From NCBI GenBank assembly GCA_963809895.1, contig CAWELD010000010.1:928001-992000 (forward strand): a DNA stretch of 64,000 nt. The letters are read 5' to 3'. This DNA is from an uncultured Gemmatimonadales bacterium (GTDB taxonomy: Bacteria > Gemmatimonadota > Gemmatimonadetes > Longimicrobiales > Gaopeijiaceae). Below the pieces are notes generated by a model that was given only the letters and a program-made list of their open reading frames with translations, was not told where the DNA came from and searched no databases. Position numbers and translations under genes: made by a program. Below are positions 31,437 to 38,381 of the stretch, piece by piece. Position 1 is the stretch's first letter. Each line of letters starts with the position of its first letter.

Positions 31437-31677
31437 GGCACTCCCTCTCAGCTTCCACCGGAGCAGCCCGGCAGCTGGAACGCTCCGATGCGGGTGGAAT
31501 AGGTCTCGGCGCCTTCTCGGCGGGATTGCGTCCGAACGGGCGAGTCATGCGCCGACCATAGAGGAGGGAGCGACAGCGGGCAACCGCATCGCATCGGCGA
31601 CTGCGCTACCGGGCGTCATGAATCGGGGCGCTCGATCGTTCGATGGTCTCGACAACGCTGATCATGGAGAGGACCTC

Positions 31678-32568
31678 ATGCCATACATCCGTCGGGCTGC
31701 CGTCATCGTCGCGGCCCTCATCCCGTTTCTGGCCGACGCTGCGCCCGCATTCGCGCAGATCCGCGCGAGCGAACGAGCTTCGGTATCGCAGACGCTGGAC
31801 GGTACGACCCTCACGTTGACCTATTCCCGACCCTCCGCCCGCGGAAGGAAGCTGTTCGGTGCCCTGGTTCCGTGGGGCGTCGTCTGGACGCCGGGGGCGA
31901 ACTGGGCCACGACGCTGGAAACGAATCGCGATATCCGAATCGAAGGTACGGCGGTGCCAGCGGGCCGCTATTCGGTGTGGATGATCCCCCGTGAGGATCG
32001 CTGGACGGTGAGCCTCGACCCGGACCCCGACCTCTTCCACTTCCAGAAGCCGGACTCCAGCGACCAGGAGATTCACGTCTCTGTGGAACCCGAGACGGCT
32101 GCCCACGTCGAAATGCTGACCTGGACCTTTCCCGCCGTCACCGGAGACGGCGCGGTGGTGGCCATGCGCTGGGGCACCGTCTCGATTCCGCTGCGGGTGG
32201 TGGCCCAGCCCACCCAGGCCCCGGAGCTCAGTGACGAGGCCAGGCGGCCCATTGTCGGACGATACGACATGAGCTTCGCTCCGGGTATCGGATGGCCCCC
32301 CGAAGGGGTGCTCGAGGTCGTGGAGCGCGACGGCCGCCTGCGGGGCCGGCTCCCGTTCTCCATCCATCCGGGAGACGAGCTCGAGTTCGACCTGGTGCCC
32401 GCGGGCCGCGACCGTTTCAGCCCGGGACTCTATCGAAACGGTGCACTCTTCAATATCGAGATGAGCATCACCTTCGAATTCCAGGTCGACGACGGCCATC
32501 GGGCCGCCGCGGTGATTCTCCGGGGCATCGAGGGCTCCACCTTCGCGGAGGGGGCACGCGCCCGCTGA
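31678..32568 (+). CDS. DUF2911 protein with a C-terminal extension
   Basis: SQTLDGT, YSRPSARGRKLFGALVPWG, WTPGANWAT, VPAGRYS; signal peptide. Confidence 0.88.
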   Translation: MPYIRRAAVIVAALIPFLADAAPAFAQIRASERASVSQTLDGTTLTLTYSRPSARGRKLFGALVPWGVVWTPGANWATTLETNRDIRIEGTAVPAGRYSVWMIPREDRWTVSLDPDPDLFHFQKPDSSDQEIHVSVEPETAAHVEMLTWTFPAVTGDGAVVAMRWGTVSIPLRVVAQPTQAPELSDEARRPIVGRYDMSFAPGIGWPPEGVLEVVERDGRLRGRLPFSIHPGDELEFDLVPAGRDRFSPGLYRNGALFNIEMSITFEFQVDDGHRAAAVILRGIEGSTFAEGARAR

Positions 32569-32591
32569 CGGGAATGGCTTGCTTCGGCGGC

Positions 32592-32607
32592 TGGTACGGT
32601 TCTAGCA
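32592..32607 (+). promoter_or_regulatory. Sigma54 (-24/-12) promoter
   Basis: TGGTACG-GTTC-TAGCA against consensus TGGCACG-N4-TTGCW, with GG and GC at the correct spacing, just upstream of the riboswitch. Confidence 0.65.
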
Positions 32608-32640
32608 TCGAGCAGGGCCTCGAAGGTCGGGTACGCCGAC

Positions 32641-32728
32641 CTCGCTCCCGGTCAAAGGCACACCCGGCGTGAGCCGGGGCCGCAAAGTCAGGAGTCTCGC
32701 GCACGAGATCGTCCGGCTGCCCGCGAAG
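32641..32728 (+). ncRNA. Cyclic di-GMP-I (GEMM) riboswitch
   Basis: GGCACAC-CCGGC-GTGA-GCCGG-GGCCGC-AAA-GTCAGGA-GTCTCG(cgca)CGAGAT-CGTCCGGCTGCC. P2 has a GNRA loop, GCAAAG forms the junction, P3 carries a CU:AG receptor, and the 3' end is GCC. Located in a 5' UTR. Confidence 0.88.
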
Positions 32729-32800
32729 TGAAGTTCCGGGCTCGGGAGTGTGCCGCGCGAACGCGCGGGCCGCATATCACTCCAGATGCAGGAGTTCGTC

Positions 32801-33793
32801 ATGTCTCATCTGACGTTTCGCCGTACCGTCGCCGCGGCGGCGCTCGCCGTTGTGGGTCTAACGGCTTGCGACAGCGGCGACCCCGTGGTTTCAGGGGATT
32901 CCACGACCTCGCTGTCCATTCTCCTCACGGACGCGCCCGGGGCGGTCGAAGCGGCCTGGGTCGACATCGACGAGATCTACCTTCAGGGCGGGGGCGGAGG
33001 TCGCCTCACGCTTCTCGACGAGCCCACGGGACTCGTGGAGCTGACCAGCCTGGCCGGGACCACGCGCACGCTCGTCCAGGACATGGACGTTTCGGCCGCC
33101 ACCTACGGACAGCTGAGAATGGTCGTGTCGGCAGCCGTCCTCGAGACCAAGGACGGCGACGTCTACACCATGGGCGGCGCGGAGCACCCCGATGGGCTGG
33201 AAGCCACCGGCGACCTCCAGTGCCCGAGCTGCTCTCAGAGCGGGCTCAAGGTCATCATCCCCGGCGACGACGTGCCGTTGGAAGAGGGCGCCATGGCAGT
33301 GGTGCTGGACTTCGACGTGGCCCAGACCTTCGGCCACAAGGCCGGCAACTCCGGAAAGTGGGTCATGAAGCCGACCATCCACGGCACCCTCGTGGACGAC
33401 GTCAACGGGGACGGCGTCCCCGACCTGGACCAGACCGGCTCGCTCGAGGGGACCGTGGTCCTGGGCACGGACGTCGTGATCCCCCAGTGCCCGGCCGGCA
33501 CCGATCGGAGCCTCACCGACTTCATTCCCATGGCCGTCGCGCAGACGCTGACCGACGGTGACGGCCAGCCCGTGGTCCGGACCGGCGCGGTGAACGAGAG
33601 CGGCGACTTCGCCATCCCCTTCCTGTCGGCCGACACCTACAGCCTGGACTATCAGGCGCAGCTCGACTTCGAGGGCGCTTCGCTGGTGTTCGGCGCCGAC
33701 GTGAGCCCGGCGCAGAGCGCCGTCGCGGACGGACCGGTCACCGGGATCGCCTATACCATCACGTCGGCGACCTGCCAGGTCTCGGGCGGCTGA
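32801..33793 (+). CDS. DUF4382 family lipoprotein
   Basis: Lipobox LTAC, LSILLTDAP, YGQLRM, SQSGLK, VVLDFDVAQTF, WVMKP. Confidence 0.88.
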   Translation: MSHLTFRRTVAAAALAVVGLTACDSGDPVVSGDSTTSLSILLTDAPGAVEAAWVDIDEIYLQGGGGGRLTLLDEPTGLVELTSLAGTTRTLVQDMDVSAATYGQLRMVVSAAVLETKDGDVYTMGGAEHPDGLEATGDLQCPSCSQSGLKVIIPGDDVPLEEGAMAVVLDFDVAQTFGHKAGNSGKWVMKPTIHGTLVDDVNGDGVPDLDQTGSLEGTVVLGTDVVIPQCPAGTDRSLTDFIPMAVAQTLTDGDGQPVVRTGAVNESGDFAIPFLSADTYSLDYQAQLDFEGASLVFGADVSPAQSAVADGPVTGIAYTITSATCQVSGG

Positions 33794-33808
33794 ATATTCA
33801 GGAGCGAC

Positions 33809-35344
33809 ATGGCCCACGATGGCCCGGACCTGGATAACCTTCCGGACCTGACCGCGGGGCTCCCCCTGGACGATCTCGTCGAGGGGGAGCCGGTGCGGGG
33901 CGTGGTGGACGACACCCTCGTGCTGCTCGTCCGGCAGGGAGACGACGTCTTCGCCGTGCAGGGTGAATGTCCGCACTACGGCGGCCCGTTGGCCGACGGT
34001 TGCGTGGGCGAGGGGACCATCCACTGTCCCTGGCATCACGCGGCGTTCGACCTCGCCAGCGGCGCACTGGTGCGGCCTCCCGCGCTCGATCCGCTGCGCC
34101 GCTGGGTCGTCCGCGTCCAGGACGGTGTGGTTCGTGTGGGTGAGGAGATCGACGACACGCCCACCCCCTCGCCGCGCCGGGATCCCGGCGACGTCGTCAT
34201 CGTCGGCGGCGGAGCCGCCGGCACGACCGCGGCTCTGACCTTGCGCCGCCAGGGACACCGGGGCCGGGTGGTGGTGGTGGATGCCGATGCCGATGCGCCC
34301 TACGACCGCCCCAACCTCTCCAAGGACTACCTGGCGGGGTCGGCGCCCGAGGAATGGCTGCCCCTGCGGTCACACGAGGATCTGGCGGGCATGGACATCG
34401 AGTGGGTCCGCGCGCACGTGTCTGGACTACACCTCGATCGTCGTGTGGTCGGGCTGGCCGACGGCCGCGAGCTCGGCTTCGGCGGCCTGGTGCTGGCCCT
34501 CGGGTCGGACGCGCGCCGGCTGTCCCTGGGCGGTTCCGGAGCCGCACGGGTGCGCACCCTCCGGTCGCTGGCCGACTGCAGGGCGTTGCGCCAGGCGGCC
34601 GAGAAGGCGGATCGCGCCGTGGTGGTGGGCGCCGGGTTCCTCGGCATGGAGGCGGCTGCCGCCTTGCGCGCCAGGGAACTGGAGGTCGACGTCGTGGCGC
34701 CGGAGCGCGTGCCGCTCGCGCGGGCGTTGGGTGAGCGGCTCGGCCGCTTTCTCCGCTCGGTGCACGAGGACCACGGCGTTCGCTTCCACCTGGAGCAGAC
34801 GGTGACGGAGGTGACCGAGGACGCGGTGTTGCTCTCGAACGGTGAGCGACTGCCCGCGGACGTGGTCCTGGTCGCCGCGGGAGCCATACCCCGGACCGGA
34901 CTCGCCGAGTCCGCCGGCCTGGCGGTGGAGGGTGGCATCGTCGTGGACCAGAACCTGGAGACGTCCGTCGCCGACGTGTACGCGGTAGGCGACGTCGCCG
35001 CGTACCCGGATCCCGAGGAGGCGTCCCGCCGCATCCGCGTCGAGCACTGGGCCGTGGCCGAGGCCCAGGGTAGACAGGCGGCGCTCAATCTCCTGGGTGC
35101 GGATCGCCCGTTCCATCACGTCCCCTTCTTCTGGACCCAGCATTTCGACGTCGTGGTCGCCCGCTCCGGATTCCCGGGTCCCTGGGACGCGGTGGAGGTG
35201 GACGGGCGCCCGGAGGACGGCGACGGCGCCGTTCGGTACAAACGGAAAGACAGGGACCTCGCGCTGGCTACCGTCTTCCGGGACCGCGACAGCCTGCGCT
35301 GGGAGATGGCTCGGGCGCGAGCGTTGCAGGCGGCGGGCAGGTAG
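33809..35344 (+). CDS. Rieske [2Fe-2S]-FAD/NAD(P) oxidoreductase fusion (AIF/ferredoxin reductase-like)
   Basis: CPHYG and CPWHH Rieske motifs, GGGAAG, YDRPNLSK, GAGFLGME, AVGD, RVEHW, PFFW. Confidence 0.93.
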   Translation: MAHDGPDLDNLPDLTAGLPLDDLVEGEPVRGVVDDTLVLLVRQGDDVFAVQGECPHYGGPLADGCVGEGTIHCPWHHAAFDLASGALVRPPALDPLRRWVVRVQDGVVRVGEEIDDTPTPSPRRDPGDVVIVGGGAAGTTAALTLRRQGHRGRVVVVDADADAPYDRPNLSKDYLAGSAPEEWLPLRSHEDLAGMDIEWVRAHVSGLHLDRRVVGLADGRELGFGGLVLALGSDARRLSLGGSGAARVRTLRSLADCRALRQAAEKADRAVVVGAGFLGMEAAAALRARELEVDVVAPERVPLARALGERLGRFLRSVHEDHGVRFHLEQTVTEVTEDAVLLSNGERLPADVVLVAAGAIPRTGLAESAGLAVEGGIVVDQNLETSVADVYAVGDVAAYPDPEEASRRIRVEHWAVAEAQGRQAALNLLGADRPFHHVPFFWTQHFDVVVARSGFPGPWDAVEVDGRPEDGDGAVRYKRKDRDLALATVFRDRDSLRWEMARARALQAAGR

Positions 35345-35390
35345 TACGGCGGTCCGGCAACGGCTTCGGTACGGCGGCCCTGCAGACGAC

Positions 35391-36632
35391 TCAGCCGCGC
35401 ACCAGCACGAACGAGCTCACCGCCAGCCACGCGAAGATCAACACGGAGAGGAGCCACACCTCCAGGGCGGAGATACGCTGTGTCCCGCGCTCTCCGTGGA
35501 ACCAGGCGATGATCAGGGTGGCCAGCATGCTGGCCGCGAACAGCACCAGGCCGAGCTTGTAGACCATGGGAGGCAGCAGGCCCTGCTGTACGAACTGATC
35601 GATGGCGCTCACTGCCACCCAGCCGGCGGCGATGATGGCCACGGCGAACTGGGGCATGCGCTTGCGGCGCAGAACGTGAAACACGCCTTCCTTCTCGGGC
35701 GCTGACGACGAATCCGGGGCCGCAGAGTGATCTGCGGACGTTGCTCCGCCCGGGGAACTACCGGCTCCGCGCAGGATGGCCCGGGCTTGCTCCGCCACCG
35801 TGCGCGCCGCCGGCCGGTGCGAAGCTTCCGGCGCCATGCAACGGGCGACCAGCTCGTCCAGGGCGGCCGGTACCTCCCGACGCACAGTGCCGACGTGTGG
35901 AGGGCCCTGCGTCCGCAGCTTCTGGAGCGCCCCGATGGCGGTGTCGTTGGCGTAGGGATGGCGCCCCGCCAGGAGTTGGAAGGCGACCACGCCGAGACTG
36001 AAGATGTCCGCGCGGTCGGTGACGGGCTCGCCGAGCTGCTGCTCGGGGCTCGCGTATTCGGCCTTGCCCAGCACCATTCCCGCCGTGGTCAGACGCTCGG
36101 CAGGCGTATCGCCCGATTCCAGGAGTCCGGTGAGGCCGAAATCCGCCAGCATGGCCCGATCGGTGCCCGAGTCCCAGAGCACGTTTCCGGGGCGCACGTC
36201 TCGATGAACCAGCCCCCGTTCGTGGGCCGAGGCCAGCGCTGACGCCAACTGCTCGAGGATGCGGAGCACCTCGTCGACGCCCAGAGCGCCTTCAGCACGG
36301 AGGCGCTCGTCGAGGGTCGGACCCTGCACGTACTGCATGATGAGGTAGGGCAGGCCGTCGGAGAGGGTCGCCACGCCATGCACCGGAACCACGTTGGGAT
36401 GGCTGAGCCGCCCCGACGTCTGCGCCTCTCGCGTGAAGCGGGCGCGGGCCGTGTGATCCTCCGCGAGCTCGGGGTCCAGGACCTTGACGGCCACGAGCCG
36501 CTTCAGGGCCGGTTCGCGGGCGAGGTAGACGCTCGCCACCGCACCGCGTCCGAGCAGGCGTATGACCTCGAGATCCGGGGCCAACTCCTCTCGGACCCGC
36601 TCTTCGAGATTCTCGCTGGAGCCGCGGTCCAT
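35391..36632 (-). CDS. Hanks-type Ser/Thr protein kinase with C-terminal membrane segments
   Basis: LGRGAVASVY, VAVK, HPNVV, HRDVRPGN, DFG, YASPEQ, DIFSLG; three hydrophobic C-terminal helices. Confidence 0.93.
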   Translation of the reverse strand: MDRGSSENLEERVREELAPDLEVIRLLGRGAVASVYLAREPALKRLVAVKVLDPELAEDHTARARFTREAQTSGRLSHPNVVPVHGVATLSDGLPYLIMQYVQGPTLDERLRAEGALGVDEVLRILEQLASALASAHERGLVHRDVRPGNVLWDSGTDRAMLADFGLTGLLESGDTPAERLTTAGMVLGKAEYASPEQQLGEPVTDRADIFSLGVVAFQLLAGRHPYANDTAIGALQKLRTQGPPHVGTVRREVPAALDELVARCMAPEASHRPAARTVAEQARAILRGAGSSPGGATSADHSAAPDSSSAPEKEGVFHVLRRKRMPQFAVAIIAAGWVAVSAIDQFVQQGLLPPMVYKLGLVLFAASMLATLIIAWFHGERGTQRISALEVWLLSVLIFAWLAVSSFVLVRG

Positions 36633-36798: not shown

Positions 36799-37890
36799 TC
36801 AGTGGACGCCCTCCGTGCCGCCGGCGGCGAAGATGGCCCCTTCGGGCTCGCCGGTGACGTGCAGGATACCCGCCGCGCCCCGATCCGTGGCCCGGAAGAT
36901 GGAGTGGTCGACGAGCTTGTAGTCGCCGGGGACGTCGACTCGAAGCTCGACGATGGCGGCGCCGCCCGCGGGGATGAGCGTGGTCTGCACGTTGTGATTG
37001 GCCGTGCTGCCGGCCTCGGTGTAGACGTTGTCCATGATCTCGCCGATGACGTGGAAGCTCGAGACCAGGTTGGGGCCGCCGTTGCCGACGAAGAGGCGGA
37101 TACGCTCGCCGGTCTTCGCCTGCAGGGCGTTGTCTCCGGTGAGGGACCCGACGCGGCCGTTGAAGATCACGTACTCGGGCCGCTCGGAGACCGCTTTGTC
37201 GTAGTCGAAGTCCTGATGACCCCGTTCGCCGTTCTTGCCGGTCGTGTAGACCTCGCCCTGCATGACGTAGAACTCCCGGTCCACCTCCGGCAGGCCCTCC
37301 TTGGGCTCCACGAGGATCATCCCGTACATGCCGTTGGCGATGTGCATGCCGACGGGCGCCACCGCGCAATGGTAGACGAACAGGCCGGGATTGAGCGCGC
37401 GGAACTGAATCGTGCTCTCCTGCCCGGGGCCCGTGAAGGTGGCCACAGCTCCGCCACCCGGGCCGGACACGGCGTGGAGGTCGATGTTGTGGGCGGCCAT
37501 GGAGTTGGGCGCGTTCTTCAGGTGCAACTCCACCAGATCACCTTCCCGCACGCGAATGAAGCGGCCGGGAACCGTGCCACCGAAGGTCCAGAAGGTGTAG
37601 TCCACGCCGTCGGCCAGGGTGCGCGTGACCTCCTGGGTCTCCAGCTCGACCACCACCTTGGTGGCGTGGTCGCGCGTGATGGGAGCCGGCACGGTGGGCG
37701 GGGCGGTGGGCTCCTCGATCTCCACGCCGACGAGCTCGGGCAGCGCAGGCGCGGCGAGCTCCCGCTCGTTCGCGTTCGCGACGGGGTCGGACGCGCCTCG
37801 GGCGAAGGCTACCAGCGCCGTGGCGGTGAGGGCGATGACGGAGAATGCGGTCGCCAGGCGAAGGAGCCCGGCGCGGTTCTTGGTGCTCAT
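36799..37890 (-). CDS. nirK: Copper-containing nitrite reductase (AniA-like, no cytochrome tail)
   Basis: [19 protein letters not shown]...[20 protein letters not shown] copper ligands; signal peptide. Confidence 0.96.
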
Positions 37891-38315
37891 GATGCTGCCT
37901 CGAGGGTCGTGGTATCGGAGTCGTCGAGAAGGTCGGCCAGGGTTGTCTCGTGGAAGGGCGCTCTGGCCTGGGCGAGGACGGCCACCCAGCGGGCGTGAGC
38001 CGCGCAGGGACGGGTCTCGTCGCAGGGTCGGTCTCCCATGAGGCAGGTCGTTCGGGGCGTCGGCTCGTCGAGCCGATCCAGGATGTCCGAGACGCGTACC
38101 TGTGCGGGCGCGGACCGGAGGCGATAGCCTCCAGAAGGTCCTCTGCGCCCCTCCAGCAGCCCCCGTGCAGCCAGGATCTGAAGGGTCTTGCCCAGGTAGT
38201 TCCGGGGGGCGCCCAGCGCCTCTGCGATCACGTCGACGCTCACCGGACCGCCATCGTGCTGGCGTGCCAGGTAGAGGACGGCCCGGAGTGCGTGATCAGC
38301 GGTGCGATTCAGCAT
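37887..38315 (-). CDS. Rrf2 family Fe-S transcriptional regulator (NsrR-like)
   Basis: [19 protein letters not shown]-x6-C-x5-C-AAH. ATGA overlap with nirK. Confidence 0.92.
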
Positions 38316-38381
38316 GTTGCGCCTGTTCGTCTGTCGTGGGTGCCGCGTTTCGGTCATTTCGCATGTGGATATGATACAATT

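Follow-up and report, generated by a model that had tools for sequence, protein, structure and literature searches.

We analysed a 64,000-nt stretch of DNA (hereafter the window) from an uncultured Gemmatimonadales bacterium, in which the leader of a gene for a DUF4382 lipoprotein (32801-33793, plus strand, 330 aa) carries a genuine member of the c-di-GMP-I (GEMM-I) riboswitch family, named after cyclic di-GMP (c-di-GMP), behind a plausible sigma-54 promoter. The reading we favour, with a probability of about 0.55, is a kinetically gated translational ON switch for the lipoprotein. The sigma-54 promoter, likely gained in this lineage in place of an older promoter of the extracytoplasmic function (ECF) type, would set the start of the transcript, and the aptamer likely binds c-di-GMP within a short window of transcription. 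Without ligand, pairing of 32643-32650 with 32743-32750 would break the P1 helix and free 32779-32783 to block the Shine-Dalgarno sequence. With ligand, a P1 that stays closed would leave 32745-32750 to take up 32778-32783 and expose the ribosome site, so that translation of the lipoprotein is likely turned on. The next gene, encoding a Rieske-FAD reductase, has a ribosome site of its own; it probably rides along on this transcript as a passenger, without direct riboswitch control, and the lipoprotein itself is probably an envelope protein of the adhesin or scaffold type.

The aptamer lies at 32648-32725 on the plus strand. Covariance models (cmscan) gave a match to RF03167 (c-di-GMP-I-GGC) at these positions (60.9 bits, gathering 59, expect value (E) 6.7e-12), the sole one listed across the window, and RF01051 (c-di-GMP-I) matched the identical place over its full model length (50.3 bits, gathering 35, E 1.4e-8). 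The complete GEMM-I aptamer that the initial annotation had read from the letters is hence backed by Rfam, and its GUGA loop on P2 (32669-32672) and the CU:AG pairs in P3 (32696-97/32706-07) can be read in the sequence; CU:AG receptors dock GYRA loops. These columns are invariant in 27/27 aligned leaders. Over these 27 homologous leaders, 94.2% of 729 cells were paired, eight pairs showed two-sided change and 0/500 shuffles reached this, with helices 2-4 paired at 100%; these values are inflated by the relatedness of the leaders and by the choice of loci via a pattern that covers P2. Compared with the Vc2 aptamer of Vibrio cholerae and RF01051, the P1-P3 architecture, the G20 and C92 contacts and A47 are in common, while a GYRA loop with CU:AG receptor, a P1 of three pairs, another host phylum and another target set the present one apart, as does a C in place of the A of the Rfam consensus at two positions of the internal loop.

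The ligand-pocket bases are G20 (32657), A47 (32684) and C92 (32720). A47 belongs to the ligand pocket of c-di-GMP-I aptamers. According to PMC6140456, G20 and C92 contact c-di-GMP, and A20 marks switches for cyclic GMP-AMP (cGAMP). Because the aptamer has G20, A47 and C92, c-di-GMP is its likely ligand, and the G at 32657 departs from the A20 of the cGAMP-type GEMM-Ib aptamers. The enzymes of the genome point the same way: it holds seven GGDEF matches, four of them full-length, and Asp occupies the Hypr position in 5/5 domains in which that position is readable, never the Ser/Thr that replaces Asp in Hypr enzymes according to PMC6456294, so that no Hypr GGDEF enzyme was found among these five. 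The earlier preference for c-di-GMP over cGAMP is thus supported. Two observations weigh against this assignment. The best Rfam score belongs to the GGC variant RF03167, above RF01051; this does not make the aptamer a GGC variant, because the RF03167 consensus, on which we presume the GGC label to rest, has G at position 47 and the aptamer has A. The genome also encodes one SMODS nucleotidyltransferase of unspecified product (G000:C3:1561787-1562251, minus strand), possibly part of an anti-phage system.

The ATG at 32801 lies 75 nt downstream of the aptamer on the same strand, and the leader holds the elements of a putative expression platform. A switching strand (32643-32651), which combines the 5' arm of P1 (32649-32651) with the anti-P1 partner, faces an anti-P1 strand at 32743-32750; a G+C hairpin follows at 32753-32768, and an anti-Shine-Dalgarno word (32778-32783) is predicted to form with the Shine-Dalgarno sequence (32790-32795) a 5-bp blocking hairpin (32778-32795). 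In minimum-energy folds without ligand, 32643-32650 pairs with 32743-32750 in all 21 end-point choices. The three pairs of P1 are favoured only in transcripts ending at 32726-32738 (probability 0.47-0.96) and cost 8-12 kcal/mol in transcripts from 32750 on. Because P1 loses out once the anti-P1 strand emerges, the decision would be kinetic; short binding windows are reported for GEMM switches in PMC9262584. The anti-P1 pairing shows matched changes in homologues, e.g. from GCUCC/GGAGC to GCCCC/GGGGC. Four strands that alternate in this way point to an ON switch. Hand-defined folds concur: the blocked state is predicted to lead by 5.6 kcal/mol when P1 is absent, and the open state by 2.5 kcal/mol when P1 is formed. 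An intrinsic terminator was considered as the platform and rejected: there is no U tail after the G+C hairpin, and no terminator-like site was called in 32400-35600.

Upstream of the aptamer, the -24/-12 match at 32592-32607 (plus strand) has GG at 32593-94 and GC at 32605-06 with ten bases between, and agrees with 9/11 positions of the sigma-54 consensus, GG-N10-GC in a TGGCAC/TTGC context. The pattern YTGGYACGN4TWGCW has a single match in the window and 0/100 shuffles match, a lenient control as the pattern was written with the site in view. The 5.3-Mb genome has 575 sites that score 9/11 or better, and such sites occur in 0.37% of random 115-nt windows. The closest homologous locus, L007 (65% protein identity), keeps the 17-mer with one change, and the genome encodes one RpoN (one Sigma54_DBD match) together with 23 Sigma54_activat matches, 19 of them full-length. 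The two consensus mismatches speak against this promoter, and so does the comparison with L007, in which no activator site was found: what the two upstream regions have in common are short G+C words only, the longest of 10 nt and inside the DUF2911 gene. We consider 32592-32607 a plausible sigma-54 promoter, in line with the initial annotation, with transcription predicted from its spacing to start near 32618. A 5' hairpin before the aptamer (P0, 32624-32642) is predicted by folding and recurs, with changed pairs, in the leaders of L007, L011 and L275.

The conserved unit is the riboswitch plus the DUF4382 gene. Among 301 genomes of the order, a strict aptamer pattern (which misses variants such as that of L275, and whose hits include kin that are not independent) matched in 28, namely this one, 1/156 in its family and, in the two remaining families, 22/71 and 4/73. 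In 24/28 of them, or in 23/27 when the unpublished genome G128 is set aside, the gene directly behind the aptamer is a DUF4382 homologue, so that the pairing recurs among relatives. The promoter is another matter. In other genomes, 22 of the 23 DUF4382-linked aptamers lie behind a motif matched by regular expression (GTGAC or GTTAC, 16-17 nt, CGTC; 0.5-1.5% of random windows contain its relaxed form), the remaining one (L182) differs from it by one letter, and the sigma-54 motif was found at 0/23. We take this motif to be ECF-like on account of its CGTC at -10; a literature search for its sigma group was uninformative. A pattern search of the genome contigs with the lipoprotein gave 131 pattern matches, of which none was confirmed.

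Closer relatives show the reverse combination. A sigma-54-like motif precedes 18 of 33 close DUF4382 homologues (>200 bits), by a score looser than that of the background test (-12 GC in 13/18). The switch occurs in 2/33 (L011 and L275; cmscan covered 30/33), in both cases behind an ECF-like motif, and the sigma-54-like match of L275 sits within that motif. In 18 distant homologues (L017 was omitted for too little upstream DNA), the ECF-like motif was present in 17 and the switch in 2. On a DUF4382 tree the switch label changes 9 times, against 22.1 for shuffles, and this gene pairs with switch-less L007 (support 97); the tree is quick, unfinished and midpoint-rooted, with 74 rows, and leaves out six loci that were too short or unmatched, duplicates and G128. 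Sigma-54 and riboswitch stand together clearly only in this genome among these rows. The dual control put forward initially is therefore upheld in part: the aptamer does lie behind a plausible sigma-54 promoter here, but the arrangement is not conserved. Such dual control of the DUF4382 gene would be lineage-specific, because close relatives with a sigma-54 motif are almost all without the switch. The sigma-54 and ECF-like motifs take up one and the same stretch in four leaders (this genome, L007, L011 and L275). Most simply, an ancestral leader with ECF motif and switch would have gone over to sigma-54 control in this family, and the aptamer would have been lost repeatedly; since the tree is midpoint-rooted, this order is one that we infer.

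Several results on the direction of the switch speak against the ON reading. Anti-P1 duplexes beat shuffles (p<0.05) in only 8/27 leaders, and the anti-Shine-Dalgarno word is present in only 15/27. The ensemble opening cost of the ribosome site is 5.5 vs 5.4 kcal/mol in this leader, with no ON signal, and averages 6.3 vs 6.3 kcal/mol over 28 leaders. A fragment test on 27 leaders found the site easier to open in 9, harder in 9 and unchanged in 9, this leader being among the harder ones (7.1 vs 3.4), and opening the Shine-Dalgarno sequence with the aptamer locked costs 4.3-5.2 vs 3.6, since it is blocked anew by 32730-32737 or by the old hairpin. Equilibrium folding tests of switch direction thus gave no consistent answer. 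The harder opening of the locked folds, seen likewise in L275 (11.0 vs 5.1), favours an OFF switch with the same aptamer, ligand and target, in which a locked P1 would let 32730-32737 pair with 32791-32797 and bury the Shine-Dalgarno sequence deeper. We regard this as unlikely: the extra helix is weak (-6.0 kcal/mol as a duplex) and closes a long nested fold, and the strand relay that would free the site is predicted in L165, L166, L211 and L185.

Control might instead be exerted on transcription or RNA stability, by pausing at the G+C hairpin, Rho loading or decay, and leave the ribosome site aside. This hairpin (helix 5) is indeed kept in homologues, with 84% of cells paired in a noisy alignment of the 27 leaders, the anti-Shine-Dalgarno word is missing in 12/27, and a gap of 15 nt with no terminator separates the lipoprotein and Rieske genes. 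If the switch worked at this level, the Rieske gene would respond together with the lipoprotein, and a whole-operon reading would hold in this genome. We find this improbable, as no U tail lies behind the hairpin and the Rieske gene is adjacent in 0/52 homologous loci (four of them with less than 1 kb of flank on one side). That the aptamer is a non-regulating relic, in the course of being lost since sigma-54 took over control, could be read from sister L007, which keeps the promoter and P0 without an aptamer, and from the 18 close homologues with a sigma-54 motif, among which L275 alone has the switch and has that motif inside an ECF-like one. Yet ligand contacts, both helices, loop-receptor contact and anti-P1 strand are all intact here, and the differences from relatives preserve pairing, which makes a relic very improbable. 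A translational ON switch for the lipoprotein remains the reading we prefer.

The survey brought up several variants of the leader and its target. Six of the 28 DUF4382-linked loci (L164, L165, L166, L175, L181 and L203) have a U in the aligned C92 column and a shortened 5' junction; a shift of register, decay or a change of ligand could account for this. In L027 and L030, a divergent open reading frame (ORF) with, by eye, an ECF-sigma-like start lies upstream of the DUF4382 gene, with a variant ECF-like motif in between; the product of the ORF is a candidate for the sigma factor that reads the motif. A leader of the same type precedes lipoproteins with at most weak DUF4382 likeness in L168, L265 and L155, possibly a distant DUF4382 branch (compared with the DUF4382 alignment, the L168 lipoprotein scored a probability of 21%, E 0.0011). 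L111, labelled Armatimonadetes, groups with proteins of this order (support 99), which suggests a binning error or a transfer, and the DUF4382 unit is repeated or present in tandem in the family members G323:C146, G201:C2, G290:C28 and G327:C65.

The target matches PF14321 (DUF4382) with 78.4 bits against a cut-off of 25 (E 7.8e-22), and has an LTAC lipobox with Cys23 followed by Asp, so that the earlier family assignment stands. Cys23 is found in 98% of 112 rows, and four further Cys are invariant in the 112 close homologues (CPSC 141/144, 230 and 325). Named homologues of the protein come from Gemmatimonadota, some of them Longimicrobiales, the order to which this genome would accordingly belong. 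The lipobox indicates a lipid anchor but does not tell the membrane face, so that the earlier description as a surface protein is unproven. Structure models (predicted local distance difference test scores of 93.4 and 89.7) are almost all beta, with a DUF4382 beta-sandwich followed by a CnaB/transthyretin-like domain. The former is most similar to Bacteroidota fimbrial proteins (4qb7, Z 7.8, root-mean-square deviation 3.3 over 129 aligned residues; 3sy6 and 3t2l, Z 6.0), and also to PUD-1/2 (Z 6.6) and MbnP (7l6g, Z 5.2, 136 aligned); the second domain resembles CnaB/transthyretin-like domains with Z up to 8.2, and those of the SdrD/PitA type with Z 7.3-7.8.

These likenesses make an adhesin role a lead from modelling. 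The lipoproteins BVU_2522, BF1861 and BF1858, type V pilins or adhesins of Bacteroidota, have in common with this protein, together with CnaB-type stalk domains, the lipid anchor and two beta-sandwich domains. Several points weigh against the comparison. All matches to adhesins have Z of at most 8.2, scores that may reflect a common fold only, which holds for type V pilins with Z <8 as well; the best pilin comparison (Z 7.8-8.1) covers one domain only, and no pilus gene cluster was seen here. Foldseek gave no match at E<=0.001 for the DUF4382 domain, and its pilin matches for the whole model had TM scores of 0.13-0.22. A sequence search of the PDB returned SdrD only (E 0.04), NCBIfam has no family for the lipoprotein, and the ESM Atlas held a single lead (0.79), with CarboxypepD_reg in 26% of members.

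The initial annotation did not know the target set from described GEMM regulons, but this kind of target is already in print: Table S2 of PMC12285248 includes Gm0241, a cGAMP-selective GEMM-I riboswitch upstream of Gmet_0241, a "DUF4382 domain-containing protein" of Geobacter metallireducens. Both aptamers stand directly before a DUF4382 gene; Gm0241 is cGAMP-selective, whereas the present one has G20 in a genome where no Hypr synthase was found. Lipoprotein GSU1556 of G. sulfurreducens likewise lies behind a GEMM-I switch, GSUR3007 (PMC6456294 and PMC10599522). Main-text searches found no publication on a Gemmatimonadota c-di-GMP/DUF4382 version or on sigma-54 with GEMM-I, though supplements may hold more, and the excerpted parts of PMC12564702 and PMC8835794 have nothing specific to this pairing of riboswitch and target. 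Riboswitch class, ligand rule and kind of target are known, for which reason the surprise is modest; new are the order-wide link to c-di-GMP and the promoter series. The uncharacterised DUF4382 family, which a single paper of the literature searched mentions in its main text, gains a regulatory clue, and its place behind cyclic-dinucleotide switches in Geobacter and in this order points to a role in surface-attached life. The swapping of promoters and riboswitches could also be studied on these leaders, which make up a natural series: ECF only, ECF with switch, sigma-54 with switch and sigma-54 only. In a bolder version, which we hold to be doubtful, DUF4382 lipoproteins would be an unrecognised class of type V pilin-like adhesins, wired separately in two phyla to cyclic-dinucleotide switches (cGAMP in Geobacter, c-di-GMP throughout this order), and this genome a rare intermediate that kept the riboswitch while its ECF promoter was converted in situ to a sigma-54 one, with a two-input AND gate as the outcome, from which sisters later deleted the aptamer.

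The gene downstream of the lipoprotein (33809-35344, plus strand, 511 aa) begins after a gap of 15 nt from the stop at 33793 and has its own Shine-Dalgarno sequence; gap and domains agree with the initial annotation. Its product matches PF00355 (Rieske), PF07992 (Pyr_redox_2) and PF00070, and the translation holds the Rieske CxH/CxxH, FAD and NAD Rossmann motifs, by which it is an intact fusion of a Rieske [2Fe-2S] domain with an FAD/NAD reductase, presumably AIF-like. No NCBIfam equivalog at cut-off was among the 25 matches listed. Co-transcription with the lipoprotein is plausible because of the short gap and the lack of a called terminator between the genes, but would be local. Orthologues were found in 9/160 family genomes; the DUF4382 gene is present in seven of the nine as well, adjacent in 0/7, and among the homologous loci tblastn found the Rieske gene only at this genome's own. 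The proposal that the reductase is a partner of the riboswitch target is therefore not borne out by the relatives, and the gene is best described as a non-conserved local neighbour.

Beyond DUF4382, the pairing of sigma-54 with GEMM-I is itself common by motif matching. Among the matches listed, the sigma-54 motif lies upstream of 15/120 distinct aptamers from named genomes and of 24/50 metagenome aptamers, many of the latter close kin. Genes behind such leaders mostly encode secreted-looking proteins without a Pfam family, and DUF4382 is found in only 4/82 metagenome aptamer loci. The metagenome contigs L187-L263 combine a sigma-54 motif, GEMM-I and a common strand-relay layout before varied secreted-looking proteins without Pfam family. 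This genome (G000) has further GEMM-I aptamers. A second one (L003, C10:830290-830377, minus strand, 61 bits), with a sigma-54 match 65 nt upstream, precedes the gene for a lipoprotein of 824 aa that contains Big_1 and Big_2 domains, and has A20 despite no Hypr GGDEF having been found. A G20-type aptamer (L002, C3:577666-577745, minus strand) is followed by a hairpin with a U run; it stands before a membrane protein and genes rich in CxxCH motifs, as in multihaem cytochromes, a set that recalls the GEMM targets of Geobacter. Two more of the G20 type (L001 and L005, C3:2404384-2404463 and C3:1379316-1379400, both minus strand) precede, in one case, a short ORF and an M50 peptidase-CBS gene and, in the other, a gene for a 554-aa lipoprotein with no Pfam match in its first 494 aa.

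Upstream of the leader and outside the unit lies a DUF2911 gene (31675-32568, plus strand; PF11138, E 4.2e-39), matched only at this genome's own loci among the homologous loci compared. In contigs of an RNA run with 0.24 of the words, the DUF2911 gene and two segments of the Rieske gene are represented; the leader is uncovered and the lipoprotein gene is touched only via a 38-nt foreign match, and such contigs cannot show absence, start or strand. Farther downstream in the window, a multicopper oxidase gene at 36799-38330 (minus strand), whose product we take to resemble copper nitrite reductase, lies behind an Rrf2 regulator.

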